A DNA stretch of 20,000 bases, from IMG/VR virus record IMGVR_UViG_3300042328_001905; one strand, given 5' to 3'. Both the position numbers and the translations under genes were made by a program. The notes beneath the pieces are model-generated. The model did not search any database and was not told where the DNA came from. It saw only the letters and a list, made by a program, of their open reading frames with translations. This stretch comes from an uncultured virus (IMG/VR IMGVR_UViG_3300042328_001905). Lineage: Duplodnaviria; Heunggongvirae; Uroviricota; Caudoviricetes. How positions within the stretch are numbered: position 1 is the first letter of the stretch; every line of letters starts with the position of its first letter. Positions 1,528 to 18,048 of this stretch are shown one piece after another.

Positions 1528-1535
1528 TATTTATA
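1528..1535 (-). promoter_or_regulatory. Antisense T4-type late promoter inside HNH codons 5-8
   Basis: The plus strand reads TATTTATA, which is TATAAATA on the minus strand, pointing at the exonuclease. Confidence 0.55.
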
Positions 1536-1992: not shown

Positions 1993-2340
1993 CATGAAAG
2001 GAAAACATCACACTGAATGCAGTAAACGAAAAATATCTATTGCAACATCTGGAGAAAATAATCCATTTTTTGGAAAAAATCATACACAAGAATCTTTAGA
2101 AAAAATGAGAAACGCAAAAAAACCTCCGCAAACCCAAGAACACAAAAATAAATGTAGATCAACTAGGTTAAAAACATTTTATTTTTTATCTCCATTTAAC
2201 GAAATCGTAGAAATAAAAGATTTAAAATTATATTGCAAAGAAAATAATTTACAATATAATTCTATGCTAAAAGTTAACAGAGGAGAACAAAATAATTATA
2301 AAGGGTGGATTAAAGCATCTCACCCGTAATATTAAAACTA

Positions 2341-3042: not shown

Positions 3043-3071
3043 AAATTCCCTTTATAGCTCTATTAAAAATG

Positions 3072-3106
3072 AAAAACCCGCATTACCAATTTTTTGGTTA
3101 GCGGGT
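3072..3106 (-). terminator. Intrinsic terminator-like hairpin upstream of phoH
   Basis: The minus strand reads ACCCGC-TA-ACCAA...TTGGT-AAT-GCGGGT followed by TTTT. Confidence 0.6.
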
Positions 3107-3134
3107 CTAGTGATTTTATTCTAAAGTGTACAAC

Positions 3135-3398
3135 TCAAAATTCTCTTGGTATTTGAAATTTTCTGTCACCAAGAGTATTTCCTGGAACAGAATCTTTAAT
3201 CCTTCCTATAATATGTTTTTGAAAATCAGCAGGAGGTTTCATTACCCCTAACCTTACTGGATCCCCGAAAATTGGAACCGAATCAAAATATCGTTCAATA
3301 TTAGAGTTTTCTTTTAAATATTCTTGATATTCAGCAATTTTCATTATTTTTTCGAAAATCTCACCAGTTTCTTTATTTCTTAGTGAATAAATTGGCAT
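3135..3398 (-). CDS. Conserved T4-like small protein of the kind found upstream of phoH (FmdB-like N-terminus, no Cys)
   Basis: MPIYSLRNKETGEIFE start and GDPVRLG motif. Confidence 0.65.
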   Translation of the reverse strand: MPIYSLRNKETGEIFEKIMKIAEYQEYLKENSNIERYFDSVPIFGDPVRLGVMKPPADFQKHIIGRIKDSVPGNTLGDRKFQIPREF

Positions 3399-3437
3399 AA
3401 ATGTATTTTTAAATTGTAATAGAATTATTTATCAATT

Positions 3438-3752
3438 TTATAAATTCGCAACATACTCTTTATAAGCTGTTGTTCGTTTATCAATATTCCCATTCGGTAA
3501 TCTAGGTAGATCTTCTGGATAATCGCTTGTATCTGGTTTAGAAGTTGCTGCAATATAGTGAGAAACTGTTGGCTGTACTTGCGGTTCAAATTTTTGTTTA
3601 AAACTTTCAAATGATTCAGCTAAAACTAAAAACGATTCTTTACTTAGATGAACAATTGTTTCATTATTATAGGAAGCAACAGCATATAAGATATTGTTTT
3701 CATTAATTAAAACTTCTGCTCCGTTGTGATTTTTCGATTTTACTGTTATCAT
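3438..3752 (-). CDS. Hypothetical protein with FlbD-like N-terminal pattern
   Basis: GAGG SD and its own promoter. Pattern MI.....NG....IN..NI........T.V.L......L.ES.E. Confidence 0.6.
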   Translation of the reverse strand: MITVKSKNHNGAEVLINENNILYAVASYNNETIVHLSKESFLVLAESFESFKQKFEPQVQPTVSHYIAATSKPDTSDYPEDLPRLPNGNIDKRTTAYKEYVANL

Positions 3753-3770
3753 AATACCTCGTAATATTTT

Positions 3771-3799
3771 ATTTTACTATATAGAATATAAATAGTCAA
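3771..3799 (-). promoter_or_regulatory. sigma70 promoter driving the left arm
   Basis: TTGACT (3799-3794), 17 bp, TAAAAT (3776-3771). Confidence 0.7.
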
Positions 3800-3842
3800 G
3801 TACAATTTAGTGCTTGACTAAAAATTGTTTTTAGTATATAGT
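3787..3842 (+). promoter_or_regulatory. Late promoter plus sigma70 promoter facing the non-coding structured region
   Basis: TATAAATA at 3787-3794; TTGACT (3814-3819), 17 bp, TATAGT (3837-3842). Confidence 0.7.
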
Positions 3843-3849
3843 AAAGAAA

Positions 3850-4150
3850 ATGTGTCTGTATAAAGGTTGATACGCCGACTGATATCGTATTGATAACCTA
3901 TTCACCATAAAAGTGTGTAGAATAGCTCTGTCTAAGAAAAAAAGAGGTAAAGACACCACCTCGTTACTTCTAGGAAACTAGATGAAATTATCAATCACTC
4001 CAAACAAGAGATGATCCAATTAGGCGCAGGATCTTTAAAATCGCTACAGGTGTGGAAAGCAGCAGAACCAATCTTGGGTTGATAATGATAAAATACCTGT
4101 CTTATTCTAAAAAAATGAATTTGGGCTCCGGATAGCCTTATTCAACCTTA
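3850..4150 (+). ncRNA. Candidate structured non-coding RNA, family unknown
   Basis: No track ORF, upstream promoters, multiple local stems and an 8-bp end-to-end pairing (3863-3870 with 4142-4149). Confidence 0.45.
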
Positions 4151-4171
4151 AAAAAGATAAATATAAAAATG

Positions 4172-4241
4172 CGCTTCCGAAGGAAGCGATGCGAGCGAAG
4201 CGAAGCATTAAATTAGTTCCCTTCGGGAACCCGCTTCGCGG
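4172..4241. repeat. Cluster of GC-rich hairpins with GAA triloops on both strands
   Basis: CGCTTCC-GAA-GGAAGCG, overlapping GCGAAGC x2, GTTCCC-TTC-GGGAAC and CCGC-TTC-GCGG. Confidence 0.85.
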
Positions 4242-4248
4242 AAATCTA

Positions 4249-4277
4249 TTGACGTAAATTGAATTTCATAATACAAT
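4249..4277 (+). promoter_or_regulatory. sigma70 promoter
   Basis: TTGACG (4249-4254), 17 bp, TACAAT (4272-4277). Confidence 0.7.
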
Positions 4278-4302
4278 AAATAAAATTAAAAGGATGTTAA
4301 TT

Positions 4303-4461
4303 ATGGATAGACAAAAAATTATTGTTGCCTTAGAAACTTTAAGGGATTATAATAGATGGAGAAGAGGGCAGCTAAAAGTGATGCCCAACGCAACATTAAT
4401 AGGAGAATCAATTGAATTAGTGATTGATTTAATATCAACAGAAATCTTAAATAAAAAATAA
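4303..4461 (+). CDS. Small phage hypothetical protein (52 aa)
   Basis: Not in the track. AAGGA SD; translates MDRQKIIVALETLRDYNRWRRGQLKVMPNATLIGESIELVIDLISTEILNKK; abuts the next ATG. Confidence 0.7.
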   Translation: MDRQKIIVALETLRDYNRWRRGQLKVMPNATLIGESIELVIDLISTEILNKK

Positions 4462-4462
4462 T

Positions 4463-4885
4463 ATGATCAAGAACGTTTATGAAATTTTAAAAGAATTTGA
4501 AGGTGCTAAAACCGATCAACAACGAAAACAAATTCTTGAACAAAATAATATCTATTACTTTAAACAAGTATTACAATATACATTTAATCCAAATTATCAA
4601 TTCTACATTAAAGAATTTCCAACAGAATATATCAAACCCGATACTTTTCCTGGAATTCGATTAGCTGGTCTTGAGTCAGAACTTCGTAGAGTTTATCTTT
4701 TCTTAAAAGGTGATCCAACAGCGGATACATTAACAGAACAAAAACGTAATGTTCTTCTATTACAACTTTTAGAATCATTTGAACCTGAAGAAGCAGTTGT
4801 TTTCGTCAACATGATGAAAAAAGACCTTCAAATCCCAGGATTAACAGAATCTTTAGTCAAAGAAGTTTTTCCAGAATTATTTTAA
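4463..4885 (+). CDS. Conserved T4-like phage hypothetical protein
   Basis: N-terminal VYEIL, central 'L..E.RR.Y.F' and 'LQLLES..PEEA......KKDL' pattern typical of T4-like genomes. Confidence 0.7.
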   Translation: MIKNVYEILKEFEGAKTDQQRKQILEQNNIYYFKQVLQYTFNPNYQFYIKEFPTEYIKPDTFPGIRLAGLESELRRVYLFLKGDPTADTLTEQKRNVLLLQLLESFEPEEAVVFVNMMKKDLQIPGLTESLVKEVFPELF

Positions 4886-4901
4886 CACTTTTAAATTTTA
4901 T

Positions 4902-5069
4902 ATGAAACAAAATATTAATATTTTTGATGATTTCGGTGAGTTTCAAACAAAAAAACGAAAATCAACTAAAAATTTGAAAACCAAACGAGTCTCATTTTCT
5001 GAATTGGATTATGACGATAATTTTTCTTCAAACAAAAAATACAAAAATGTCGATTATAAAAAATACTAG
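4902..5069 (+). CDS. Small hypothetical protein (55 aa)
   Basis: Not in the track. MKQNINIFDDFGEFQTKKRK...YKKY fills the gap between ORFs. Confidence 0.5.
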   Translation: MKQNINIFDDFGEFQTKKRKSTKNLKTKRVSFSELDYDDNFSSNKKYKNVDYKKY

Positions 5070-5199
5070 AGATATATACAACAATATTTCTAAACCTGAA
5101 CCTGCAAAAAGCCCAGTAATTCCAGCTAATCAAGAATTGTTGGATAAAGTTGTTAGCGATTTAAATAAAAAACCTCAAATTGCTCCAAAAATAAAATAA
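5047..5199 (+). CDS. Small hypothetical protein
   Basis: Track ORF 5011-5199; the internal start MSIIKN reduces the overlap with the upstream ORF. Confidence 0.5.
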   Translation: MSIIKNTRDIYNNISKPEPAKSPVIPANQELLDKVVSDLNKKPQIAPKIK

Positions 5200-5208
5200 G
5201 AGATTAAT

Positions 5209-5421
5209 ATGATACCAGAAGATTCTACTTTACGCAGACATTACCTGACTGAATTGAAATATAAACAGGAATCTCAATTTGAGGATTTTATTTCTGTTGC
5301 TACAGGTAAAGGATCACAAGTTAACCCAATACCACAATTTCCTGCAGCCCAGGAATCAATTCCTTATTCTTCTTATCTAGCAGCATTTGCTTTTGTTTTG
5401 TTGCTGTTGGTTTTATTTTAG
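5209..5421 (+). CDS. Small protein with IPEDSTLRRHY motif and C-terminal transmembrane anchor
   Basis: GAGA SD; hydrophobic tail YLAAFAFVLLLLVLF. Confidence 0.65.
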   Translation: MIPEDSTLRRHYLTELKYKQESQFEDFISVATGKGSQVNPIPQFPAAQESIPYSSYLAAFAFVLLLLVLF

Positions 5422-5424
5422 TGC

Positions 5425-5453
5425 TTGACTTTTTGATGACTTTAGGTTAAGAT
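5425..5453 (+). promoter_or_regulatory. sigma70 early promoter upstream of the topoisomerase cluster
   Basis: TTGACT, 17 bp, TAAGAT. Confidence 0.7.
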
Positions 5454-5485
5454 AAAGTTTCCAATTAACCTGTAAGGATTTTATT

Positions 5486-5743
5486 ATGAGTATTTACACT
5501 AAAGAAGATATTAAACAATTATTGCAAAATAATGTTGGTACTGTAACTTTCACTAAAACTGATGGTACAGAACGAGTTATGAAATGCACTTTACAATCTC
5601 ATGTGTTACCTATTACTGAAATTGTTGAGGGTAAAGTAATTAAAACCGAAAATCCTAATGTGTTATCTGTTTGGGATTTAGATAATAATGGTTGGCGTTC
5701 TTTCAAAATTGATTCTGTACTTTCATTAAATATTAATATTTAA
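5486..5743 (+). CDS. WYL_2/DUF2693-like SH3-fold phage protein
   Basis: VTFTKTDGTERVMKCTL and VWDLDNNGWRSFKID motifs. Confidence 0.8.
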   Translation: MSIYTKEDIKQLLQNNVGTVTFTKTDGTERVMKCTLQSHVLPITEIVEGKVIKTENPNVLSVWDLDNNGWRSFKIDSVLSLNINI

Positions 5744-5744
5744 A

Positions 5745-7613
5745 ATGACAAAACATATTCAACAAACTTATCAAGTTCTTGATGAGATTGAACATATTAG
5801 AAAAAGAACTGGCATGTATGCTGGTTCTACTTCAATCCAAACAAGCCAAGAATGGGTTTATAATACTCAATCTAAAAATATGGAAAAGCGAGATATTTCA
5901 TATATCCCCGCTTTTATTAAAATCTTTTCTGAAATTCTTGATAATTCTATTGACGAAGGAAAAAGAGCGCCTGATGTATTAAATCAAATTAAAGTGGATA
6001 TTACATTTGATGAAATTTCTATTCAGGATAATGGTCGAGGTATTCCCGTAGAAATTCATGATCAAACTGGAACATATATTGCAGAAACAGTTTTTTCTAA
6101 TTTGCGCGCAGGTTCCAATTTTAATGATGATGAAGATCAATCATTAATCGGTACTAATGGTGTTGGTTCAACATTAACTAATGTTCTTTCTACAAATTTT
6201 AAAATTGAATCTTGCGACGGTAAGAAAAAATTAACTCAAGATTTCTGGAATGGGATGCGAGAGCGTTCAGAACCTAAAATTAAAGAATATTCTAAAAATG
6301 GAACTAAAATTACATTCACGCCAGATTATGAATTTTTTAAGTTAACAGGTTTAGATGCAGACCATATTTGTAAAATTCAAAAGAAAGTAATTGATGCTGC
6401 TGCAAATAATTTAAATATTAAATTTTATTTTAATGGTGAATTAATTAAATTTAAATCTTTTGATGATTATATTTCGTTATATTCTACTGAGTATTACACA
6501 GATAATACTGATGATTGGAAAGTTGGTATCAGTTCTTCGGATGGATTTGAGCAAATTTCTTTTATCAATTCGGTAGAAACTTATCAAGGTGGAACTCATG
6601 TCAATTATGTTGTTGATCAAATCACAACTAAACTTCGTGAGCACTTTAAGAAAAAACATAAAGTGGATGTAAAACCTAGTGATATTAAAAATCATTTTAG
6701 AGTTTATATTGCTGGTACAGTAAATCGACCAAGATTTTCTAGTCAAACAAAAGAAAATATGATTAGTTTGCCAACCGAATGGAAAACTTCCTGGAGCGTT
6801 AGCGATAAATTTATTAAAAACATTCTTAAATCCGAGATTATTCAATCTATTTTGGATTGGGTTCAGGCTAAAGAACGTGCTGCTGAAGCTGCTGAATTGC
6901 GTAAAGCTAATAAAAATTTAGATAAAGCAGATCCACGTAGAGTTGAAAAGTTCCATGATGCATCTACCAAACAACGTAATGAAGCAATGTTATTTTTAGC
7001 AGAAGGAGATTCTGCACTTTCAGCATTGTTATCTGGTAGAGATCCAAAAACAATGGCAGCATTTCCGTTACGAGGTAAACCTGTTAATGTACGACCTATG
7101 GAATTAAAAGATATTCTTGATAATAAAGAATTTAAAAGCATCATGACAATTACTGGGCTTCAATTTGGTGTTCCTGTTAATTCTATCGAAGATATTCGGT
7201 TTGGTAAAATTGTCCTGTCTACAGATTCGGATTTAGATGGATTTCACATAAGAGCATTATTATTAAATGCGTTTTATAAATTTTGGCCAGAATTATTTTC
7301 TTTAGGTGTTATTTATATTTTAAATACACCAATTGTAAAAGTTAAGTATAAAAAAGAAATATTAAGTTTTTACACTTTAGATCAATTTAATGATTGGAAA
7401 AAAGATCATATTGGAGAAAAATATGAATCCAAATATTATAAAGGTCTAGGAACCAGTTCTAGTAAAGAATGGAAAATTTATTTGTCCGAATTGGCTAATA
7501 ATTTAGAACAATTAATTTCATTAAAAGACGAGACTGCACTTTTTGATTTACATTTTTCTAAAGAAACTGGTAGTACTGATAAGAGAAAAGTTTGGTTGGG
7601 TATTGAAGGGTAA
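5745..7613 (+). CDS. DNA topoisomerase II large subunit (fused T4 gp39+gp60 equivalent)
   Basis: GHKL motifs EILDNSID, DNGRGIP and GTNGVG; TOPRIM motifs EGDSA, PLRGK, DSDLDG and YKGLG. Confidence 0.95.
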   Translation: MTKHIQQTYQVLDEIEHIRKRTGMYAGSTSIQTSQEWVYNTQSKNMEKRDISYIPAFIKIFSEILDNSIDEGKRAPDVLNQIKVDITFDEISIQDNGRGIPVEIHDQTGTYIAETVFSNLRAGSNFNDDEDQSLIGTNGVGSTLTNVLSTNFKIESCDGKKKLTQDFWNGMRERSEPKIKEYSKNGTKITFTPDYEFFKLTGLDADHICKIQKKVIDAAANNLNIKFYFNGELIKFKSFDDYISLYSTEYYTDNTDDWKVGISSSDGFEQISFINSVETYQGGTHVNYVVDQITTKLREHFKKKHKVDVKPSDIKNHFRVYIAGTVNRPRFSSQTKENMISLPTEWKTSWSVSDKFIKNILKSEIIQSILDWVQAKERAAEAAELRKANKNLDKADPRRVEKFHDASTKQRNEAMLFLAEGDSALSALLSGRDPKTMAAFPLRGKPVNVRPMELKDILDNKEFKSIMTITGLQFGVPVNSIEDIRFGKIVLSTDSDLDGFHIRALLLNAFYKFWPELFSLGVIYILNTPIVKVKYKKEILSFYTLDQFNDWKKDHIGEKYESKYYKGLGTSSSKEWKIYLSELANNLEQLISLKDETALFDLHFSKETGSTDKRKVWLGIEG

Positions 7614-7615
7614 AT

Positions 7616-7900
7616 ATGATAAAATATTGTTTTCCATTTTCTACCTTAGATGGATTAGAATTGATTCCGTTTTTGTGGATGTTTGATGAAACTTTTATTA
7701 GAAGTATGGGTAAACGATTTAAAAATCTTAATAAAGATTTATTATATCAAAAAAATTATATTTCTGATGTTTTATTAGAGAAATTAGATGGAGTTGTATT
7801 TTCTGGGTATGTAGGTAAAATCCAATACAATTATAATTTTTCTGAAAATACTAGAACAATTAGATTTTCTATTGATACTGAAATTTTATTTGACTTATGA
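7616..7900 (+). CDS. Hypothetical protein
   Basis: Tightly packed ORF with an ATGA overlap to the next gene. Confidence 0.55.
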   Translation: MIKYCFPFSTLDGLELIPFLWMFDETFIRSMGKRFKNLNKDLLYQKNYISDVLLEKLDGVVFSGYVGKIQYNYNFSENTRTIRFSIDTEILFDL

Positions 7901-8184
7901 ATATAAAATTAACTGAAAATGATATAATTAATTTATTATTCAGATTTGAATATTTACAAGAATCAGTATTTGATCAAATAAATTCTTCAATCTTAAATTT
8001 AACAGAATTTAAATGTAAATTTAAACTTAAATTTTATTCTAAACCATTTATATCATATGGTGTATTATCATTTAATAAATGTTTAAATAATAGATCTATT
8101 ATTTTAGAATTTTCTGATACCGAATTAACATATTTAAAAATTATGGATATACAAACAAATAAAATTTTATTGGAGATAAAATGA
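7897..8184 (+). CDS. Hypothetical protein
   Basis: ATGA-coupled on both sides. Confidence 0.55.
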   Translation: MNIKLTENDIINLLFRFEYLQESVFDQINSSILNLTEFKCKFKLKFYSKPFISYGVLSFNKCLNNRSIILEFSDTELTYLKIMDIQTNKILLEIK

Positions 8185-8798
8185 AATCTTTTAAATTATT
8201 TCATGAAATGTCTATAAATGTTGGTGATGTTAAAATGGATTTAGCCACAAAACATGATCAACAAATTCATTTTAAAAAAAGTCGAAATTATCCTATTATG
8301 GATAATTTAAATAATAATGTTAAAAAACATGTTTTTAAAAATAAAAATATAACAAAATATTATACTAATGATCATGATTCAGGAAAAACTTTATATAAAA
8401 GCGAATTTCATGAACATAATCCCACAAAATTTATTCCATTCAAACATCAAGAACAGACATCTGTTGAAAGAATATCTACAAAATTATTACCGAAAAATTA
8501 TGCATTGCATGAAACATTAAATCATCTACATAATTCTAATTTACCTTTAATTTCTTCAACTTACCAAACCCCATCAGGTCATAATATGTGGAAGAAATTA
8601 TCTCATAAAGCATTGGAAACTGGTCATCATGTTTATTATCACGATGGATCTAAGTTACATAAAACTACATCTGAGAATATAGAAAATCATCTACATTCAT
8701 ATTTTGACCCAGGAACTAATTTTGATTCTTCTGGTAATTTGATTGATCCATTAGATTTCGAACATAAACATATAATTATATCTAAACATAAACTATGA
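8181..8798 (+). CDS. His-rich protein, paralogue of 10612-11238; possible internal head protein
   Basis: GGAG SD; MKSFKLFHE N-terminus; shares PFKHQEQT, GHNMW.KL.HKAL and VYYHDGS with the paralogue. Confidence 0.7.
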   Translation: MKSFKLFHEMSINVGDVKMDLATKHDQQIHFKKSRNYPIMDNLNNNVKKHVFKNKNITKYYTNDHDSGKTLYKSEFHEHNPTKFIPFKHQEQTSVERISTKLLPKNYALHETLNHLHNSNLPLISSTYQTPSGHNMWKKLSHKALETGHHVYYHDGSKLHKTTSENIENHLHSYFDPGTNFDSSGNLIDPLDFEHKHIIISKHKL

Positions 8799-10102
8799 AA
8801 CAAATTACAATCGATAGATTATTTCAGGAACAATATCGTCCGTACGCCAACTACGATAATGAGCGTTCATTACCAAATTTAATTGATGGTTTGAAAATTA
8901 CTCAGCGTAAAGTTTTATATACTTGTTTATTGAAAAATACAACAAGTGAAATGAAAGTCGCTCAATTAGCGTCTTCCGTGGCATACGAAACCCAGTATCA
9001 CCACGGTGAAGCAGGTATTGGTGGCGTAATTTGTAACCTTGCGCAGGATTTTGTAGGCTCTAATAATTTAAATTGGTTGGATCCTATTGGTCAGTTTGGT
9101 TCTAGATTAAGCCCAATTCCAGCAGCTCATCGTTATATTTTTACAAAATTATCAAAAAACTTTAGACAATATTTCCGTAAAGAAGATGATATTATCCTAG
9201 AGCATTTATATGAAGACGAATATAAGATTGAGCCAAATTTCTTTGTGCCACTCTTGCCAGGAGTGCTTTTAAACAGTACCCAGGGTATTGGTACTGGTTT
9301 TGCTTCTACGATCCTCTCTCGTGATCCTCGAGAGCTCTCGTCCTACATTAAGAACAAGATGTCAGGTGGTATTCGATATTATGATTTACTGCCGTATTTT
9401 GACGGATTCAAAGGTACAGTTGAACGTGTAGAGGAAAATAAATATAAAATTAGTGGTTGTATTGAGCGAGTTAGTGCTACTCAAATTAAAATTACTGAAT
9501 TGCCTGTTGGTATGTATCTTGATGACATTAAAAAACAATTAAATAAATTAATAGAAAATGATTCCATCAAAGATTATGAGGATAATTCGACCGAAGAAAG
9601 TTTTGATATTGATGTGTACTATCAAAGAGGAATTTTAAATAATTTACTTGACGAAACCCTACTTGATAGGTTAAAATTGACTACAACGGTTACTGAAAAT
9701 TTAACGTGCTGGTTGCCCACTGGTAAGTTAAGAAAATTCAGTTCTGTTAATGATATTATTGATTACTTTGTTGATTGGCGTTTGTGTAAATATACTGAAC
9801 GTATCATTAAGTTAATTGATATTTTAAACGATGATATTAAAATTTCTAATGAGCGAATTAGATTTATTTATTTTTATTTAGATAATGTTAATTTATTTAA
9901 AAATGCATCAAAACTTGAGTTAATTTCAATTTTAGATGAAAATGACTTTACTGATAAATTATTAGATATGAAAATTTGGAATTTAACTGGTTCTAGAATA
10001 AAAGAATTGGAAACTCAGGTTAAAGAATTAAATACTAAGAAAAAACAATTAGAAAAAACAACTAATATACAATTATATTCAAAAGAATTGGAGGAATTAT
10101 GA
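8795..10102 (+). CDS. DNA topoisomerase II medium subunit (T4 gp52 equivalent)
   Basis: DGLKITQRK, YHHGE, GQFGSR, catalytic AAHRY, GIGTGF and ITELPVG motifs. Confidence 0.95.
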   Translation: MKQITIDRLFQEQYRPYANYDNERSLPNLIDGLKITQRKVLYTCLLKNTTSEMKVAQLASSVAYETQYHHGEAGIGGVICNLAQDFVGSNNLNWLDPIGQFGSRLSPIPAAHRYIFTKLSKNFRQYFRKEDDIILEHLYEDEYKIEPNFFVPLLPGVLLNSTQGIGTGFASTILSRDPRELSSYIKNKMSGGIRYYDLLPYFDGFKGTVERVEENKYKISGCIERVSATQIKITELPVGMYLDDIKKQLNKLIENDSIKDYEDNSTEESFDIDVYYQRGILNNLLDETLLDRLKLTTTVTENLTCWLPTGKLRKFSSVNDIIDYFVDWRLCKYTERIIKLIDILNDDIKISNERIRFIYFYLDNVNLFKNASKLELISILDENDFTDKLLDMKIWNLTGSRIKELETQVKELNTKKKQLEKTTNIQLYSKELEEL

Positions 10103-10287
10103 TCCCAGAATTTACAGCTCAAGAATTACAAGAATTGAAATCTAGATTTAATAGCATCGTTGTTAATGAAAGTGTAGAAAATGAAGTTATTGTTCATACA
10201 TTATCATCTGGTAGAATTGTCAAAGGTGTAGTTACAATGGAAGGTGTATTACAAGTTAAATCTGTATCTAACTTTTTGTGCGGATAA
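10099..10287 (+). CDS. Small hypothetical protein
   Basis: GGAGG SD and ATGA overlap with gp52. Confidence 0.65.
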   Translation: MIPEFTAQELQELKSRFNSIVVNESVENEVIVHTLSSGRIVKGVVTMEGVLQVKSVSNFLCG

Positions 10288-10288
10288 A

Positions 10289-10615
10289 ATGCAACAACAA
10301 TATACAGTATCTACAGGGATGGATACATATCAAGCAGCAAGTTTAATTCCTTGGTATGATATCCTAACTGATGAATTTATTGAATTTATGCAAAATTGTG
10401 TATTTGAAGATATTTCTTTAGATTTAGATGACAATTTAGGTTATTATTTATGGGATTTATTTCAGCATAGAATGTGGATAAAATCTCAAATATCTGGTTG
10501 GATATGTAATAATGGTAGAAGATTAGAATGGGATAGTAAATCTAAAAAAATGACTAATATAAAAATCTATAATATTATAGATAACCAAAAATATCTTTTA
10601 TTGGAGTTAAAATGA
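10289..10615 (+). CDS. Hypothetical protein
   Basis: Track ORF 10244-10615; the likely start MQQQY lies just after the upstream stop. Confidence 0.55.
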   Translation: MQQQYTVSTGMDTYQAASLIPWYDILTDEFIEFMQNCVFEDISLDLDDNLGYYLWDLFQHRMWIKSQISGWICNNGRRLEWDSKSKKMTNIKIYNIIDNQKYLLLELK

Positions 10616-11238
10616 AATCTTATTGGGATTTTATTGAAGAAATGGCTCGAAATATAGGAAATCACCCTTATTCGAGATTAAATAATGATAGAGAATTTCG
10701 GTTTGAGAAGTATAAAACTAATTCAAGTTATCCTATTTATCAATATGATACAGGCGATCAAAATGTTAATGTGACTAAACATATTGATAATAATGGTACT
10801 ATTTATTATTCAACCAATGATAATTCATCAAAAGAAATTATACATTATTCAAATATTGAAACGCATAAACCTACAGCTAAATTACCGTTTAAACATCAAG
10901 AACAAACAATGGTTGAACGAATAAAAGATAATAGATTACCGAAAGAATATGCTACAAATTTTATCTATAACCATTTTAAATCAAGTAATTTACCTTTAAG
11001 AAGTTCTGATACACAATATAGAACTGGGCATAATATGTGGAGAAAATTAGCTCATAAAGCTTTAGATGATGGTTATCGTGTTTATTATCACGACGGATCG
11101 CAATTACATAAATCTAATAAAATGAATGTTGATAAACATTTAGATTCTTCTTTTGGTGTAGAAACTAGAATTAGAGGTAACGCATTACCTCCAGATTATG
11201 AACAACGACATATTATTTTATCAAAAAAGGAATTATAG
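10612..11238 (+). CDS. Paralogue of 8181-8798; possible internal head protein
   Basis: GGAG SD; MKSYWDFIEE N-terminus; shared motifs with 8181-8798. Confidence 0.7.
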   Translation: MKSYWDFIEEMARNIGNHPYSRLNNDREFRFEKYKTNSSYPIYQYDTGDQNVNVTKHIDNNGTIYYSTNDNSSKEIIHYSNIETHKPTAKLPFKHQEQTMVERIKDNRLPKEYATNFIYNHFKSSNLPLRSSDTQYRTGHNMWRKLAHKALDDGYRVYYHDGSQLHKSNKMNVDKHLDSSFGVETRIRGNALPPDYEQRHIILSKKEL

Positions 11239-11239
11239 A

Positions 11240-12091
11240 ATGAATTATTTAATTATAGATTTAAATCAGGTTGTGATTAGTGGATTACAATCTCAAGTTA
11301 AATCTAACAAAATAAATGTTTTGAATAAAGATTTATGTAGACATTTAGTTCTTAATTCAATTAGAGCTATTGTCTACAAATTTAAACGAGATTATCCTAA
11401 CGTAATTATCGCAGCAGATTCTAGAAAATATTGGAGAAAAGAAGTATTTCCTTTCTACAAAGCAGGTAGAAAAAAAGCTCGCGAAAAATCAACACTAGAT
11501 TGGACTTTAATTTTTGAAGTTTTGGATGAAGTTCGTACTGATTTAATTAATATTTTTCCATATAAAGTTATTTTAGTTGATAGAGCTGAGGCTGACGATA
11601 TTATTGGTACTCTTGTTCCTAGATTATCTGCTCACGGTAATGTTTTGATTGCTAGTTCTGATGGAGACTTTAAGCAATTACACAAATATGGTAATGTTAA
11701 ACAGTATAATCCTATGTTGGGAATATATGTTACTTCGCCTAATCCAGAATTAGAATTAAAAGAAAAAATCTTAACAGGTGATAGTGGAGATGGTATCCCT
11801 TCTTGTTTGTCTAATGATAATGTTTTGGTGGAAGGTATCAGGCAAAAGCCATTAACGGCTAAGAAAAAAGCTGAATTGTTATCGCAAGATTTTAATAATC
11901 CTGATATTGAGTTTTATAGAAACATTCAACGCAATAAATTGTTAATTGATTTGACTATGACCCCACAGGATATTAAAGATAAAATTGTTGAGGAATTGGA
12001 ATCTGACCAAACTGGTTCTAAACAATTGGTAATGAAGTATTTTATTGAAAAAAGGTTAAATAGATTATTGGAGTGTATTGATGAATTTTAA
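11240..12091 (+). CDS. rnh: T4-type RNase H (5'-3' flap exonuclease)
   Basis: IIDLNQ, YWRK..FPFYKAGRK, EADDIIG, SSDGDFKQL and GDSGDGIP motifs; AAGGA SD before MNYLIID. Confidence 0.92.
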   Translation: MNYLIIDLNQVVISGLQSQVKSNKINVLNKDLCRHLVLNSIRAIVYKFKRDYPNVIIAADSRKYWRKEVFPFYKAGRKKAREKSTLDWTLIFEVLDEVRTDLINIFPYKVILVDRAEADDIIGTLVPRLSAHGNVLIASSDGDFKQLHKYGNVKQYNPMLGIYVTSPNPELELKEKILTGDSGDGIPSCLSNDNVLVEGIRQKPLTAKKKAELLSQDFNNPDIEFYRNIQRNKLLIDLTMTPQDIKDKIVEELESDQTGSKQLVMKYFIEKRLNRLLECIDEF

Positions 12092-12233
12092 TGACATTGA
12101 ATTAGAAGAAACAATTGGTGATATTATAGATAATGTTGCTGATATATTTGGTACTGTAGATGATTCTTTAGTGGAAAAACTGCGCGATATTGCTCTTGAA
12201 TTTGCGTCCGATTTTGATCGCGATTATTATTAA
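12081..12233 (+). CDS. Very acidic 50-aa protein
   Basis: Not in the track. GGAG SD; translates MNFNDIELEETIGDIIDNVADIFGTVDDSLVEKLRDIALEFASDFDRDYY. Confidence 0.65.
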   Translation: MNFNDIELEETIGDIIDNVADIFGTVDDSLVEKLRDIALEFASDFDRDYY

Positions 12234-12553
12234 TTTTTATAATAATTACAAAATAATTGTATCTCTTTATCTGTGAGATCATTTTTAGCTCGATTGGCTT
12301 TGACTGAAATAATTTCTATGTTATCTATTTCATATCCTTTCGAGCTATCTATTCTATCGAAACTATAACTATCGTCTTGTGCTGCTCCACGATGCCATTT
12401 TAAAGGTATTCCCAACACAGGACATGTTATAGGAAAACTTAAATTATTTAACTCTGGAATTGTTAACGTAAATTCTATTTTTCTACGTTTAGCTGACTGT
12501 TTAAGTCGTTGATAAATTTCCCGAGTTTCTGGTGGTTTTATTCTACAATTCAT
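12230..12553 (-). CDS. Small HNH-like (His-Me finger) endonuclease-fold protein
   Basis: AKRRKIEF.L, CPVLG and SFDRIDSSKGY..DN...IS..AN.AK motifs. Confidence 0.75.
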   Translation of the reverse strand: MNCRIKPPETREIYQRLKQSAKRRKIEFTLTIPELNNLSFPITCPVLGIPLKWHRGAAQDDSYSFDRIDSSKGYEIDNIEIISVKANRAKNDLTDKEIQLFCNYYKN

Positions 12554-12565
12554 ATATTATTTTTT

Positions 12566-12754
12566 ATGTACATATTAGTATTAATTATATCCCTTAAATC
12601 GCAATTTAATCATGCATTAGATGTTAAAATTCAAGATAAGATTGAAACTGAACACGTTTGTCAGGCAATAGCAGAAGAAACTATTGCAGGGCTAAAATAT
12701 TATGACAAAGATGTTAATACTAAATATTTTTGTAAATTGAATACAGCTCGATAA
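12566..12754 (+). CDS. Small hypothetical protein with hydrophobic N-terminus and two Cys
   Basis: MYILVLIISL...C..........C; this start avoids overlap with the HNH-like gene. Confidence 0.5.
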   Translation: MYILVLIISLKSQFNHALDVKIQDKIETEHVCQAIAEETIAGLKYYDKDVNTKYFCKLNTAR

Positions 12755-12763
12755 GGAAAAGAA

Positions 12764-13141
12764 TTGATAAATTATTTAAAAGACATTTATAAAGAAGAAG
12801 AGCATGATGGATTTATTTTTTTATTGGATAATGACGAAATGTTAGATATTTCTGCCTTTACCTATAAAGATCCTTCTCCTCCAGTTGAGATGCATGAATC
12901 TCTTGGTTATAAGTATCATATTATAACATATAGAGAAACTGTTGATGGTGATATTGTTGAACCTGATATGTTTGAAGCTATTTTAGGTAATCCTTGGCAT
13001 TATTCATCTAATTTAATTAAAATGGGTTTTTTTGGTACTATATGTAAAAAGACTGCAACATCATTTCAAACTGTAAATGCTATGTTTCAAGATTTAGTTA
13101 AAACTGTACATGATCAGGAAATCGATGAACAAACAAATTGA
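12764..13141 (+). CDS. Acidic hypothetical protein
   Basis: TTG start with AAGGA SD. Confidence 0.6.
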   Translation: MINYLKDIYKEEEHDGFIFLLDNDEMLDISAFTYKDPSPPVEMHESLGYKYHIITYRETVDGDIVEPDMFEAILGNPWHYSSNLIKMGFFGTICKKTATSFQTVNAMFQDLVKTVHDQEIDEQTN

Positions 13142-13367
13142 TAAGTTAATAGAAGAATATATTCCATCAGATAAAATTAAAGCGGAAAGTTTAATTCGAG
13201 CATTTGCTGCTGGGTTAACAAAAGAAATGGAACGGTATGCTGAGAGTCAGTATAGAAAATATAAATCCAGTACGAGTCAAACTGTACGTGATGATCCTTG
13301 GGTGTTAGGTACAAGCGAAGGCGCTGATCATTGTGTAGAAATTATTAAAAAAATGCTTGACGAATAG
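13125..13367 (+). CDS. Hypothetical protein
   Basis: AGGA SD before MNKQID. Confidence 0.6.
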   Translation: MNKQIDKLIEEYIPSDKIKAESLIRAFAAGLTKEMERYAESQYRKYKSSTSQTVRDDPWVLGTSEGADHCVEIIKKMLDE

Positions 13368-13385
13368 TACGAATTAGGTTAAACT
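13357..13385 (+). promoter_or_regulatory. sigma70 early promoter
   Basis: TTGACG, 17 bp, TAAACT. Confidence 0.65.
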
Positions 13386-13416
13386 ATTGTTATGTTAATA
13401 AAAAAGGTGAAAACTG

Positions 13417-13785
13417 ATGTGTAAAATTAAATTTGTAGAAGTATCGCAAATTATGGAAGATGGTCGCGCAATTGGTATGAAATATCTGGATAATTGGATG
13501 GTTATTACTAATTATAAAGATGTTGATGAAGCATTTTTAAATTTTAAATTTGTAATTAATACGGTTGTAACAGATAACCAATCAATTATTTTATGTCGAG
13601 ATGATGTAAAACGTTTTTGTAAAGCTATCCAAACAAATGTTGGTGATTGCGGTTCCAAAAAAACTATTTTTGGTAAATTAAAAGAATTTTTGCATGATAA
13701 TTATGAAGTAAAACGTATTATTATGAATCCAAGAACTCTAGAATATTATCCGCAAAATAAAGCATTTATTGTTAATAAATTATGA
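13417..13785 (+). CDS. Hypothetical protein
   Basis: AAGGTG SD; downstream of a promoter. Confidence 0.65.
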   Translation: MCKIKFVEVSQIMEDGRAIGMKYLDNWMVITNYKDVDEAFLNFKFVINTVVTDNQSIILCRDDVKRFCKAIQTNVGDCGSKKTIFGKLKEFLHDNYEVKRIIMNPRTLEYYPQNKAFIVNKL

Positions 13786-14045
13786 AACCGATTTATTGGG
13801 TAGAAGTATTAGAACGGGAATATGGTACTTTAAATTCACATAAAGTTATCCAGGAATATCCATTTCCTGATGTTGAATTTGAACCCTTTGGATTCGATTT
13901 AGCATTATTTGAGCAACAAATATATAAAATTGAAGATAAATTAACTAGATTTGCTACGCATAGGAGATTTAGGTTTATCGTTGACATATGGCACCCTAAA
14001 AATTATTTTAGGGTAGTTATTAAACCATGGAAATATAAAAAGTGA
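13782..14045 (+). CDS. Hypothetical protein
   Basis: ATGA overlap with the upstream ORF. Confidence 0.6.
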   Translation: MKPIYWVEVLEREYGTLNSHKVIQEYPFPDVEFEPFGFDLALFEQQIYKIEDKLTRFATHRRFRFIVDIWHPKNYFRVVIKPWKYKK

Positions 14046-14048
14046 GGA

Positions 14049-14231
14049 ATGATGGCAACAATTTCAAAAGCAAGTAGAAAAGCAAATCCAATGAAAACCA
14101 AGAATGAGCGACCAAGATTAGGTAATTATTCTACTGCAACATTGCGTGAAATGGCTGAAAAAGCTAGTTCAAAAAAGCAAAAACATAAAATTGAAAATCG
14201 TATTAAATACAATGTTAAAAGAGGTGTATAA
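14049..14231 (+). CDS. Small basic protein
   Basis: GAGG SD; K/R-rich. Confidence 0.6.
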   Translation: MMATISKASRKANPMKTKNERPRLGNYSTATLREMAEKASSKKQKHKIENRIKYNVKRGV

Positions 14232-14380
14232 TGAGTGGTGTTGAAGTTAAAAAATGTAGTTGTTCAGGAACTCCTGCTGCTGAATTCCAGGATAAACAGT
14301 ATGGAAAAGGTATGAGAGTAATGAATCAAGACGCTAAAAAAGGTTATTCTTGTACTGTTTGTGGAACTAAACACAAATAA
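14231..14380 (+). CDS. 49-aa zinc-finger-like protein (CxC...CxxC)
   Basis: Not in the track. GAGG SD and TAATG coupling; translates MSGVEVKKCSCSGTPAAEFQDKQYGKGMRVMNQDAKKGYSCTVCGTKHK. Confidence 0.75.
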   Translation: MSGVEVKKCSCSGTPAAEFQDKQYGKGMRVMNQDAKKGYSCTVCGTKHK

Positions 14381-14581
14381 TTAATTAAAGATATATCCTA
14401 ATCCTAATATAAGAAGCCAGAAAAGAAACTGATTTACAGTTATTTCTACTGGCTTCTCTTTTCTTGTTGATCGAGTTGTGCTCGATTTTGTTCTTTGTTT
14501 TCTTGGGTTAAATGCAGAATATCGATCTCGATAAAATTTCTTTGTAGGATTTTTTCTGTATTTTTTCCCAAAATTACTCAT
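14381..14581 (-). CDS. Basic protein with C-terminal transmembrane helix
   Basis: TAATG coupling; FLFWLLILGLGYIF tail. Confidence 0.6.
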   Translation of the reverse strand: MSNFGKKYRKNPTKKFYRDRYSAFNPRKQRTKSSTTRSTRKEKPVEITVNQFLFWLLILGLGYIFN

Positions 14582-14877
14582 TATTTTTTCGCAGCTTTTG
14601 CAACGTTTTTAGCAACTTTTGCAACTGATGTGGATCCTTCAGATTCTGCTACTTCACCTAATGCTTCAGCTACAACTCCAACAACATTATCTGTGTCAGC
14701 TAATTCTTGTCCTATTTTAGCCGCTGCAGCTCCAGCTTTTTCAGTTAAAGGAACTAATTCTTCATTTCCTGTTATAATTTCTACAGTTGTTGCGGCTTTT
14801 GTTAAAAATGGCGCAAATTTACCGAGTCCAACAAATCCCATTTTAATTTTTGATAAAATATTTGTTAAAAAATTCAT
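14581..14877 (-). CDS. Ala-rich hypothetical protein
   Basis: AAGGAG SD. Confidence 0.7.
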   Translation of the reverse strand: MNFLTNILSKIKMGFVGLGKFAPFLTKAATTVEIITGNEELVPLTEKAGAAAAKIGQELADTDNVVGVVAEALGEVAESEGSTSVAKVAKNVAKAAKK

Positions 14878-14897
14878 TTCATACTCCTTTTGGTTAT

Positions 14898-15107
14898 TTA
14901 AAATTTAATATCAGTTTCTGGTGCAGTTTCTTTAAAAAATACTCCAAGGATACCGAATACAACAGCAGCACCGTTCATTGCTGTATTCCATTGTTCATCA
15001 GGGATTTGTTGACCTGCTAAAGCAAATAATGCAGCTAGAGATGCATGTGTACTTGGTTCTCTTAACCTTTTAAATACATATAACAATTTTCCTATTATGT
15101 TCCCCAT
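14898..15107 (-). CDS. Holin-like two-TM small protein
   Basis: AGGAG SD; RLREPST..L motif with two hydrophobic segments; CTAAATA late-promoter variant at 15136-15130. Confidence 0.55.
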   Translation of the reverse strand: MGNIIGKLLYVFKRLREPSTHASLAALFALAGQQIPDEQWNTAMNGAAVVFGILGVFFKETAPETDIKF

Positions 15108-15146
15108 AAAAATCTCCTATTTTTATTTGTATTTAGTAAAAATAGC

Positions 15147-15180
15147 TTGACTACATCGAACTTATACGGTATAATAAATA
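15147..15180 (+). promoter_or_regulatory. sigma70 promoter with overlapping late-type ATAAATA, heading the run of genes that ends in pmoC
   Basis: TTGACT (15147-15152), 17 bp, TATAAT (15170-15175); ATAAATA at 15174-15180. Confidence 0.7.
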
Positions 15181-15207
15181 AGAGGAAACTAAAATTTGAG
15201 GCATAAT

Positions 15208-15435
15208 ATGATACAATCAGTTGAAGATTACCATGAAGGGGTTGCAGTGTTTAATACCAATGAAGTGAAACTCGTTCATGAGTTTAAGCAAGGATCTAAC
15301 CATTCTATGGTTAGAGAAAAAAACGGAATTTATATCGTTGATTTATTTAGTCAACGTGGTATTGAAGCTAGAACTAGATATGATAATTTAGAATCAGCAA
15401 AAAAAGTAGCTGAAGATTGGGTGTTAAATAAGTAA
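15208..15435 (+). CDS. Hypothetical protein
   Basis: GAGG SD before ATG 15208; C-terminal AKKVAEDWV. Confidence 0.65.
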   Translation: MIQSVEDYHEGVAVFNTNEVKLVHEFKQGSNHSMVREKNGIYIVDLFSQRGIEARTRYDNLESAKKVAEDWVLNK

Positions 15436-15650
15436 TGTTAAATTGGATCGGAACTGTTAATTTTTTGGTTGCAGGAACTTTGATTGCAACAAATGTTGAA
15501 CCTTATAGTAAATATGCATTTATATTTTTTATGTTGGGGCATGGTTCTTGTCTATTAAATGCGTTTAATAAAAATATATATTCGTTAAAAGTGCGATATA
15601 TTTTCTTTTGTATTATAGATGCAGTTGGTATCTATAATTGGTTTAGTTAA
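15435..15650 (+). CDS. Small 3-TM membrane protein
   Basis: WIGT.......L.A.N...GIYNWF pattern common in phage small membrane proteins. Confidence 0.65.
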   Translation: MLNWIGTVNFLVAGTLIATNVEPYSKYAFIFFMLGHGSCLLNAFNKNIYSLKVRYIFFCIIDAVGIYNWFS

Positions 15651-15659
15651 GGAGTATTA

Positions 15660-16121
15660 ATGAAATCGTTTAAACAATTTATGGATGATATTGTTGAAGA
15701 TAAATCACCATGCTGGAAAAATTATAAAATGTTAGGTATGAAGAAAAAAGGGTCAAAAATGGTTCCTAATTGCATACCTGAAGAAGTTGAAGAAATTTTT
15801 GAAGTTACTGGCACTGAATTGTATGAAGATTGGCAAGAACTTGACGAAGAAGCTGAAAAAAATGGTAAACGAGTTAAATTAAATAAACCATTTTTAACTC
15901 CAGGTGGTCCAAAGAAACGTTCAGTGTATGTAAAAAATGGCTCAGGTAATGTCGTTAAAGTAAATTTTGGTGATCCAAATATGGAAATTAAACGAGATAG
16001 TCCTGAGCGTAGAAAAAGTTATAGAGCTAGACATCATTGTTCCGATCCAGGTCCAAAATGGAAAGCTAATTATTGGAGTTGTAAATATTGGAGTAATACT
16101 CCCGTATCAAAACTAGATTAA
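15660..16121 (+). CDS. Conserved T4-like phage protein (DUF6321-like) with capsid-targeting-like N-terminus
   Basis: AAGGAG SD; MKSFKQF; PCWKNY...VPNC; VNFGDPNM.IKRD.PERRKSYRARH.C; YWSC. Confidence 0.75.
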   Translation: MKSFKQFMDDIVEDKSPCWKNYKMLGMKKKGSKMVPNCIPEEVEEIFEVTGTELYEDWQELDEEAEKNGKRVKLNKPFLTPGGPKKRSVYVKNGSGNVVKVNFGDPNMEIKRDSPERRKSYRARHHCSDPGPKWKANYWSCKYWSNTPVSKLD

Positions 16122-16206
16122 TACAGAATCTCCCCGCTGCCTAGACGGTTCTAGGTAAAACCGATGCATGTGCATCAAACTTTAATCTGAAACAAAGGAG
16201 TCTTAC

Positions 16207-16959
16207 ATGGCTGCTACATCTAATACTATTAAAGAAACTGTTACAGAAACACCATTGTTAAATAAAAGAAATTTAACATTAGGTATGTTGTTATATTTAA
16301 CATTTTATTCATTTATTCGTTGGTACGAAGGGGTTTATGGTTGGTCAGCTGGTCTCGACTCATTCGCTCCAGAATTCGAAACATACTGGATGAACATGTT
16401 GTATATTGAAATTGTTGCAGAAGTGTTATTGTTCGCGGGTATTAATGGTTATATTTGGAAAACTCGTGATCGTAAAATGATGTCAATTATTCCGCGTGAA
16501 GAGTTGCGTAGACATTTTACTCATTGGACATGGTTGGTTTGCTACGGCTGGGCTATCTACTGGGGTGCTAGTTACTTCACAGAGCAAGACGGTACATGGC
16601 ACCAAACTATTGTTCGTGATACTGACTTTACTCCAAGTCATATTATTGAATTCTATTTGAGTTACCCAATCTATATCATCACTGGTACAGCTAGTTTTAT
16701 GTATGCAAAAACAAGATTGCCTACTTATCAACAAGGTTTACATTTAATGTATCTTATTGCTGTAATTGGTCCTTTCATGATCTTACCAAATGTTGGTTTA
16801 AATGAATGGGGTCACACATTCTGGTTTATGGAAGAGTTGTTTGTTGCTCCATTACACTATGGATTTGTGTTCTTTGGTTGGGCTGCTCTAGCTGTAATGG
16901 GTGTTGTGAACACCGAAGTAATGGCAATTTCTAAATTATTGAAAAATGATTTAGCATAA
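16207..16959 (+). CDS. pmoC: Particulate methane monooxygenase subunit C (phage auxiliary metabolic gene)
   Basis: RWYEGVYGWSAGLDSFAPEFETYWMN, YFTEQDGTWHQT, DFTPSHIIEFYLSYP and GLNEWGHTFWFMEELFVAPLHYGFV; 250 aa; AAGGAG SD. Confidence 0.97.
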   Translation: MAATSNTIKETVTETPLLNKRNLTLGMLLYLTFYSFIRWYEGVYGWSAGLDSFAPEFETYWMNMLYIEIVAEVLLFAGINGYIWKTRDRKMMSIIPREELRRHFTHWTWLVCYGWAIYWGASYFTEQDGTWHQTIVRDTDFTPSHIIEFYLSYPIYIITGTASFMYAKTRLPTYQQGLHLMYLIAVIGPFMILPNVGLNEWGHTFWFMEELFVAPLHYGFVFFGWAALAVMGVVNTEVMAISKLLKNDLA

Positions 16960-16978
16960 GTTAAGTCAACTGTTAAAC

Positions 16979-17005
16979 AAAAAGGGAGCTTCGGCTCCCT
17001 TTTTT
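16979..17005 (+). terminator. Intrinsic terminator with C(UUCG)G tetraloop
   Basis: AAAAA-GGGAGC-TTCG-GCTCCC-TTTTTT. Confidence 0.92.
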
Positions 17006-17043
17006 ATTACCTAAATATGTTTGTACACAATTTAGGTAGAAGT

Positions 17044-18048
17044 ATGAACGAATTAAACGATTTTTTAAACCTTATAGCAGAAGCAAAAAAAGAAGCTAAA
17101 ATACTAGGGAATACTACAGTCGAAAATCCAATAGAAATTGTTGAAGAAAAATCTAAATTAAAAATTCCAAAAATAGATATATCTTCTAAATTAAAAGATA
17201 CTTCTTTCTTATCTCTACTTGAATCAGAAATGGTTAAATCAAAAGAAGTAGAAGCTAACGAAAAGAAAACAACCGATATATTTACATCATTCTTTGAATC
17301 TATTCCTGTAACATTTAATAAACCTGTTGAACCAGAAATAACTAACCCATTAGAAATTTTTTCTCCTGAACAAGACATAGAATTAATAGAAGAAATTTTA
17401 GTTGAGCAAGAACAAAAGATTCAGCCAGAAATTTTAGTTGACACGCCAATTATTCCTGAAGTTATTGTAGAAGAACCAAAGAAACTAGATTTAACTGATC
17501 CATCTCATTACGATAAATTATTCAAAACCAATACAGATCATTTTGCTCAACCTGATCTACCAAAATCAGATCCAAATATAAAAGCATTAACTGATAAGAT
17601 CAAGTATATGGAAGATTGGTTAACCAAAATCGCCATGGCTGGTCCAGGATCTGGTGAGGTTAATCTTAGATATCTTGATGACGTTGATCGTTCAAGTATC
17701 TATGATATGAGATATATGAGGTACAATAATACCTCAAGAAAATTTGAATTTGCTGAAATTAATCCTCATGATGTAATATATACAACACATTTAGTAACTT
17801 CAGCAACATACACAATCGATAATGATGATTATTATGTTGGTGTTGATTATAATAATACCGTTGATATAACATTACCTGCAACCCCAAATTCAGGCAGGAT
17901 GTTAATTATTAAAGATGAGTCTGGTAATTGCTCAACAAACCCTATAACAGTTCATGGAACAGTAGATAATGATCCAGGTGGATTTATACTACAAATAGAT
18001 AACGGAGCAATACAATTGCTCTATAGAAACGGATGGAGAATAGTATGA
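17044..18048 (+). CDS. Probable virion structural protein
   Basis: CTAAATA late-promoter variant at 17011-17017; acidic Pro-rich N-terminal half; GSGEVNLRYLDDV motif; C-terminal DYYVGV...ITLP...GR.LIIKDESG domain seen in phage tail-associated proteins. Confidence 0.65.
   Translation: MNELNDFLNLIAEAKKEAKILGNTTVENPIEIVEEKSKLKIPKIDISSKLKDTSFLSLLESEMVKSKEVEANEKKTTDIFTSFFESIPVTFNKPVEPEITNPLEIFSPEQDIELIEEILVEQEQKIQPEILVDTPIIPEVIVEEPKKLDLTDPSHYDKLFKTNTDHFAQPDLPKSDPNIKALTDKIKYMEDWLTKIAMAGPGSGEVNLRYLDDVDRSSIYDMRYMRYNNTSRKFEFAEINPHDVIYTTHLVTSATYTIDNDDYYVGVDYNNTVDITLPATPNSGRMLIIKDESGNCSTNPITVHGTVDNDPGGFILQIDNGAIQLLYRNGWRIV

Follow-up and report, generated by a model that had tools for sequence, protein, structure and literature searches.

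A stand-alone Methylomonas-type pmoC gene in a T4-like phage, and probable group I introns in pmoC of related phages

Introduction

Stand-alone pmoC genes of freshwater phages have been in the literature since 2020, when Chen et al. described 22 pmoC-phages (PMC7674155). In a 20-year lake series (Zhou 2024, bioRxiv 10.1101/2024.02.06.579183), pmoC is a persistent auxiliary gene of lake viruses and Methylomonas is one of four host genera. Freshwater amoC-phages (bioRxiv 10.64898/2026.06.18.733297) likewise carry a single damage-prone catalytic subunit in large phages, and late amoC expression is reported for them, but both the enzyme and the hosts are different. The pmoC gene analysed here belongs to this known kind, and the earlier note on this DNA, made from the letters alone, was right to call it not new in kind. 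Another counterpart is psbA of cyanophages, again a gene in large phages whose product is one catalytic, damage-prone subunit of a membrane complex in the host.

The stretch of DNA that was analysed, called the window, is 20,000 nt long and represents the end of a linear virus record (IMG/VR IMGVR_UViG_3300042328_001905; 75,552 bp, 30.6% GC, 43% complete). It resembles the gamma type of Chen et al. (PMC7674155), with a myovirus-type genome, a lone pmoC, conserved CuC ligands, more than 90% identity to methanotroph PmoC, and divergent termini. The GC content is low in both (30.6% compared to 32-44%), and the implied size of the window phage, about 175 kb (75.5 kb at 43%), is within the published range of 159-527 kb. 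The hosts named in Chen et al. (PMC7674155) are Methyloparacoccus, Methylocystis and Methylobacter, while the window copy is of Methylomonas type. The viruses of Zhou 2024 are likened by description, and the window phage may or may not be among them. The nearest cellular counterparts (L081-L097) are operon copies in Methylomonas and in allied genomes from lakes and rivers; they have the same length and the same ligands and, for the best matches, 91-92% amino acid identity. The window copy differs from these by being without pmoA and pmoB, by a DNA identity of 82-86% to the closest ones, by a phage leader and terminator, and in residues 5-15. No pmoC was found in 50,697 GenBank phage records.

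We consider it likely that this intact and probably late-transcribed phage gene would supply a fresh active-site subunit to the particulate methane monooxygenase (pMMO) of the host.

Results and Discussion

The pmoC gene and its product

The gene is an uninterrupted, intron-free ORF on the forward strand (16207-16959) that codes for 250 residues. Its product matches PF04896 with 424.9 bits (cut-off 26.7; profile positions 6-244 of 245) and, as a full-length family member, TIGR03078 with 357.5 against 280.6. It aligns without gaps to PDB 1yew_C, which we take to be PmoC from Methylococcus capsulatus Bath (query 11-235 to chain 39-263, offset +28). By this offset, D128, H132 and H145 correspond to CuC ligands 156, 160 and 173, and N199, H203 and H217 to CuD ligands 227, 231 and 245. 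Both the CuC set (Asp/His/His) and the CuD set (Asn/His/His) are thus complete, and the claim of a full-length pmoC with intact ligands is borne out, with each ligand mapping as the earlier note had it. The ligand numbering follows PMC7674155 for CuC and PMC11194816 for CuD; according to PMC11725843, the active site is considered to be the pocket with CuC and CuD. In the window protein, F149, F212 and F220 are the counterparts of pocket phenylalanines 177, 240 and 248, R137 is also at the pocket, and every pocket residue that was checked is retained.

The six ligands are invariant in all 137 distinct sequences compared (53 phage, 78 host, 6 PxmC). As PxmC also keeps all six, they are not diagnostic of methane use, and we read their presence as retention of the fold, not of methane specificity. 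This leads to the question whether the phage protein adds to methane oxidation at all, or whether it holds membrane arrays, binds copper, or unbalances pMMO assembly and thereby redirects host metabolism. We infer that activity does not have to rise when one subunit is in excess, and a low-expressed orphan pmoC has been suggested to be regulatory (PMC3615186). However, a decoy would tolerate more change than is seen in a protein with a fully retained set of checked pocket residues and a near-invariant core, so that a role without gain in methane oxidation is considered improbable and the supply of a working subunit is preferred.

Genome context

The contig carries T4-like genes (capsid, tail tube, sheath, wedge, topoisomerase, RNase H), and these, together with the bridged gene borders described below, place pmoC in a myovirus genome like those of the pmoC-phages. 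Neither pmoA (PF02461) nor pmoB (PF04744) gave a match in the 75,552-bp contig, which is 43% complete; PF02461 matched in a Methylomonas genome used as positive control, while PF04744 was run without such a control. The pmoA profile was also without match in four other pmoC-phage records, one of them complete. The next ORF belongs to phrog_30742, in agreement with the description of the gene as stand-alone and flanked by phage genes.

Also as described, pmoC ends a run downstream of the promoter at 15147, being the last of four tightly packed ORFs, whereas in many viral relatives it follows a promoter of its own. The run starts with a 75-aa ORF (15208-15435, forward strand) that gave no family match and is 80-100% identical in close relatives. 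It is followed by a hydrophobic 71-aa ORF (15435-15650, forward strand), for which an automatic cluster name alone suggests PnuC (feature score 0.92, no common Pfam), and which we treat as a lead; its homologues (72-75%) occur in related phages without an adjoining pmoC. The third gene (15660-16121, forward strand) codes for a 153-aa phage protein of the widespread family phrog_7595. A link of this gene to pmoC was considered and rejected, as it adjoins pmoC in 4 of 80 viral loci, all of them close relatives of the window.

Several observations were made on other genes. The 153-aa protein directly before pmoC has a Cys-Trp-Lys motif, and a similar-looking protein is encoded directly after pmoC in L008 (5868-6377), even though the captures are separate. 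Three ORFs of the window (8181-8798, 10612-11238, 15660-16121) share a similar MKS(F/Y) start, reminiscent of the sequence that targets internal proteins of T4 to the capsid. A 107-aa ORF on the reverse strand (12230-12553) matches endonuclease families and, more weakly, the Srd anti-sigma factor (phrog_1400, E 1e-11). Downstream of pmoC, the adjoining gene (17017-18048) is a variable module, 44-55% identical in phages with near-identical upstream DNA (L002, L004) and replaced altogether in run X18. A search for pmoC via this downstream gene was negative in five records that are 9-50% complete, and the control gave no match either. Rfam families and tRNAs were not found in the window, nor HSP20 among the neighbouring ORFs scanned, nor pqqA beside pmoC in the contig. 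Short pqqA-like peptides occur near pmoC in 4 of the 80 viral loci (L018:2731, L021:5858, L025:7846, and L033:4314, the last a reverse-strand position).

Assembly integrity

Words from positions 15100-17600 are listed for 24 sequencing runs, 18 of which hold at least half of them; 16 are labelled lake, freshwater or aquatic. The gene borders were checked in contigs from four runs that are not flagged as a possible source of the record. Single contigs bridge the pmoC start in all four runs and the stop in three; in run X18, pmoC continues into a different downstream sequence. Two IMG/VR loci cross both borders (L001, 100% over 8,794 bp; L002, 99% over 5,811 bp) and L007, which may be from the same population as L001, crosses the left one.

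The earlier note had named a chimeric assembly at the gene borders as a possible flaw. A host pmoC misassembled into a phage contig might be suspected since contigs break inside pmoC in all four runs, and none spans the full stretch. However, the borders are bridged in runs not flagged as source, L001 and L002 cross both of them, and no host copy is closer than 86% at the DNA level among the matches listed. A chimera is therefore very unlikely, and we give it next to no weight; at contig level, the pmoC gene passes as a genuine part of the phage genome.

Ancestry of the gene and the probable host

The search for bacterial PmoC gave at least 590 matches, 80 of which were kept as host loci. Among these, the best matches are from Methylomonas and allied genomes with 91-92% amino acid identity, while PmoC from Methylobacter tundripaludum is 82% and PxmC 44-47% identical among the matches listed. 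In an IQ-TREE phylogeny of 48 rows, the window copy, L002 and L004 form a clade (bootstrap 99); the next grouping, also at 99, adds M. subterranea, M. lenta and four others and is itself nested in a larger clade (95). A FastTree phylogeny of 137 rows has a 20-row clade with support 0.982, the named members of which are all Methylomonas, but its nearest group to the window differs from that of IQ-TREE and is weakly supported. As the trees disagree on the nearest group, the gene is placed in a Methylomonas-type clade and not with a species. It lies within methanotroph PmoC and apart from the PxmC rows, which were labelled by 44-52% identity and by the A-before-C order in G006. Solved AmoC chains score 227-235 bits compared to 466 for the closest PmoC, and the window protein is accordingly set apart from AmoC by score and nesting, the trees holding no AmoC rows. 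The top NCBIfam model is AmoC_BACT (388 bits), which counts against the proposed role; profile names, however, fail to separate AmoC from PmoC, this being the best NCBIfam model for the protein. The phylogenetic check put forward in the earlier note thus came out in favour of a Methylomonas-type operon PmoC and not PxmC, with AmoC set apart by bit score and nesting.

In 77 of the 80 host loci kept (80 of at least 590), pmoC is followed by pmoA, and ten host genomes were found to contain 10 pmoC, 6 PxmC and no orphan pmoC. As host copies are operonic and orphans absent from these ten genomes, an operon copy is the evident source, and the window pmoC is taken to descend from an operon copy of Methylomonas type. 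The M. lenta family, with 346 genomes, was searched for CRISPR spacers to positions 1-16150 of the window (16 of 75.5 kb). There were weak matches in 83 genomes (best E 7e-5, two candidates scored per genome), and none of the 15 loci fetched held an array. No spacer was found in this search, and gene ancestry points to a probable Methylomonas-type host. The earlier note had named a Methylobacter/Methylomonas-like host; the ancestry of the gene favours the Methylomonas part and not the Methylobacter part (82% identity).

Selection and divergence from host copies

The dN and dS values are 0.050 and 0.566 relative to phage locus L004, and 0.067 and 0.596 relative to host locus L082, the nearest host among the matches listed (86% DNA identity). 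With dN/dS at about 0.1, the window pmoC is judged to be under purifying selection. Its GC3 of 0.295 is between the usual values of the phage and the 0.43-0.52 of nine Methylomonas-clade hosts. Eleven positions differ from all 78 host sequences, with eight of them in residues 5-15, followed by M91, I95 and N247; residues 96-246 contain none. To judge from this pattern, the residence of pmoC in phages has been long enough for drift, and the gene has stayed intact. One of the eleven is Ile95 (16489-16491), where all 78 hosts have Thr; this substitution counts against the proposed role. L002 and runs X14 and X18 read Thr here, however, which makes Ile95 a variant within the population. Codon bias was considered as proof of high expression and rejected. 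The NNC share of 0.36 is second among 58 ORFs, but that of the hosts is higher (0.46-0.80) and the codon bias of the phage gene may therefore be inherited.

The distribution of these changes is relevant to another possibility, namely that the phage PmoC joins the host pMMO and alters its copper or zinc use, its stability, or its resistance to proteolysis via the N-terminus, much like a stress-type extra C subunit. The clustering in residues 5-15, with M91, I95 and N247 in addition, would fit, as would the variable termini among phage copies; terminus-based tuning was proposed by Chen et al. (PMC7674155), and amoC3 is described as a stress copy. Yet the core is host-like, the gene comes from an operon copy and not from a divergent orphan, and the N-terminal drift fits A+T amelioration, given the GC3 difference to the nine hosts. 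We therefore consider such retuning unlikely and continue to favour the supply of an ordinary, fresh subunit.

Evolution of the site in related phages

For comparison, 80 of 116 viral relatives were kept. Three loci (L243, L244, L251; RNase H 70% identical) have a 69-aa gene followed by a homologue of the 343-aa gene and are without the pmoC cassette, which counts against the proposed role. In six others (L008-L011, L035, L037; RNase H 79%), a pmoC that is 79-82% identical is located directly behind the RNase H gene, about 4 kb away; in this group, pmoC starts at 5001 and is under the motif TATAAATA. A topology that unites the window group with that of L008 in one clade is rejected at p-AU 2e-5 on 26 rows, the groups having been chosen once earlier trees had been seen. 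Taken together, the history of the site is pictured as one of repeated capture and patchwise exchange of pmoC.

Patchwise exchange is evident in L004, which is 96-100% identical to the window over 14250-15999 but 88% in pmoC. There are also dips in identity at 12500 and 13250, so that mosaicism is not unique to pmoC. The pmoC copies from L016 and L006 are identical in three windows of 25 codons and only 76-77% identical in three others. Both have host-like codon use (NNC 0.61-0.64), which suggests recent capture.

Such mosaics, and the drop of L004 within pmoC, would also be expected of a neutral passenger, a recently acquired gene that looks intact only through recombination with host or phage copies. 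We consider this highly improbable, because the best host copy among the matches listed has just 86% DNA identity, codon use is half-way to that of the phage, dN/dS between phage copies is about 0.09, and phage signals have replaced the host promoter and leader. A gene retained for its product, as the supply of PmoC would have it, remains our preferred reading.

Transcription signals

A composite promoter-like site is predicted at 15147-15180 on the forward strand. It consists of a sigma70-type element (TTGACT-17-TATAAT, 15147-15175, 11 of 12 matching), overlapped by an ATAAATA late-type motif (15174-15180). The sigma70-type element is among the two best matches in the window, where promoter-like matches overall are at chance level (113 compared to 122.7 +/- 12.3). 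Both hexamers and the ATAAATA motif are kept in all five close loci (L001, L002, L004, L005, L007), with changes confined to the spacer or to positions after the motif, and it is this conservation, not the match score, that supports the promoter. ATAAATA, which we take to resemble the T4 late promoter, is found 20-65 nt upstream of 11 of 77 ORFs compared to 1.6% of random 45-nt windows, a background not matched for intergenic A+T. Among these ORFs are the ones for capsid, tail tube, sheath and wedge. The pmoC gene itself is 1 kb from the promoter and has no late motif of its own, which counts against the proposed role.

The pmoC leader (16122-16206, forward strand; 85 nt) has two hairpins and a GGAG ribosome-binding site (z -2.05, 9 of 200 shuffles) and, as it is without a U-run, is probably not a terminator. 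Matches to host pmoC by blastn begin at 16207, and the leader does not align to host pmoC DNA. Since host similarity begins at the start codon, promoter and leader are attributed to the phage. The leader was also considered as a conserved RNA motif, which was rejected; hairpins are common, but the sequences are not shared across phage groups, nor can they be aligned to the leaders of hosts. In the leader comparison, similarity to the host pmoC-pmoA spacer was seen in a CUAUCUCC-like stretch, which is too short to call. Within the host pmoC-pmoA spacers themselves (L081-L100, L137, L142, L154, L156), which are about 110-135 nt long, a CTATCTCC stretch is conserved together with a long hairpin of -24 to -46 kcal/mol. 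Such an arrangement could yield excess pmoC mRNA or couple the translation of pmoA.

Behind pmoC, an intrinsic terminator with a C(UUCG)G loop is predicted at 16975-17005 (forward strand; hairpin 16984-16999 and U-run, z -3.95, 0 of 200 shuffles). The UUCG terminator noticed at first sight of the sequence is thereby substantiated, although a simple terminator scan did not list the hairpin at 16984-16999. Its first 29 nt (16975-17003) recur without change in the terminator that follows the gene for the major capsid protein (minus strand of G000:C1, about 16305-16333), and these are the only two C(UUCG)G hairpins of at least 5 pairs in the contig. The terminator string is, however, also present in other contigs of the compared runs (loose contig ends at 16971-17005), which counts against the proposed role, and it may therefore be a stock terminator of these phages. 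A CTAAATA motif (17011-17017, forward strand), conserved in L002, in L004 and, ahead of the same gene, in the pmoC-less L244, is a candidate for a separate promoter of the downstream phage gene. None of the 24 runs listed for 15100-17600 is given as an RNA library.

Probable group I introns in pmoC of related phages

While the window pmoC is uninterrupted, inserts of about 250 nt were found in pmoC of 9 of the 80 viral relatives. The ten inserts, two of them in L059, are spread over six sites, which in window residues are behind 45, within 205, within 207, behind 214, within 220, and behind 224. Five of these six are in the CuD segment. The Rfam model RF00028 matched five inserts in four of the six loci scanned, with 69-94 bits (cut-off 50), and gave no match in L026 and L035. 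The L035 insert is nevertheless 95% identical to the matched insert in L038, and the L026 insert is 77-79% identical to those in L035 and L038. We infer that these inserts, 249-258 nt in length, are probable group I introns (L019:5659-5916, L020, L026:5643-5893, L035/L037/L038/L039:5615-5863, L041:5130-5382, L059:5614-5862 and 5916-6167).

When the inserts are removed at a U/G boundary (the exon ending in U, the intron in G), all nine loci give products of 250-258 residues with the six ligands. Only in L019 is the U/G junction the sole best score; in four loci a neighbouring junction scores equally well, for L059 the choice was made by eye, and in three loci the junction was taken over from twins. 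The longest ATG frame in any insert codes for 74 aa, which means that there is no homing endonuclease. Such introns would explain the published 'fragmented' phage pmoC copies. Among the papers listed in the literature searches, none was by its title an account of group I introns in phage methane monooxygenase genes; the word 'intron' is absent from the main text of PMC7674155 and from the amoC preprint (10.64898/2026.06.18.733297) as available, and the supplements of Chen et al. may bear on the point.

Proposed role and significance

For the supply of a fresh subunit, we envisage a single transcript that would extend from 15147/15174 to 17005, be about 1.8 kb long, and be made by host sigma70 and then by the phage late factor. 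The phage PmoC would enter the membrane and join PmoA and PmoB from the host. PmoC would be the subunit that is both in highest demand and most prone to damage, and topping it up after host transcription falls could sustain methane oxidation, and with it energy and carbon, while virions are built. In Lake Rotsee, phage pmoC was co-expressed with structural genes and was among the top genes (PMC7674155). Host pmoC mRNA is 3-4 times as abundant as pmoA mRNA in M. trichosporium OB3b (PMC3615186). For the C subunit of AMO, oxidative damage and replacement have been proposed, with exchange in the assembled enzyme not validated (PMC13058606).

A more far-reaching joint reading is offered tentatively, as something that may well not hold in full: pmoC would be the psbA of methanotroph phages, a damage-prone, replaceable subunit captured at least twice from different hosts by one phage lineage, placed on late, capsid-grade signals, and exchanged in patches. 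The CuD segment would be so constrained that self-splicing introns settled at five sites, the 'fragmented' copies would work, and pMMO would have an unrecognised PmoC repair cycle.

The window copy adds little in kind, but it is a test case, since the likely host genus has cultured members, and there are natural controls among its close phage relatives, namely an unoccupied site, an exchanged allele and a separate capture. Of greater consequence than the window copy are the introns in relatives, which suggest that broken phage pmoC genes have been miscounted. Methanotrophs in lakes limit the release of methane, at a rate that phage pmoC may or may not change.
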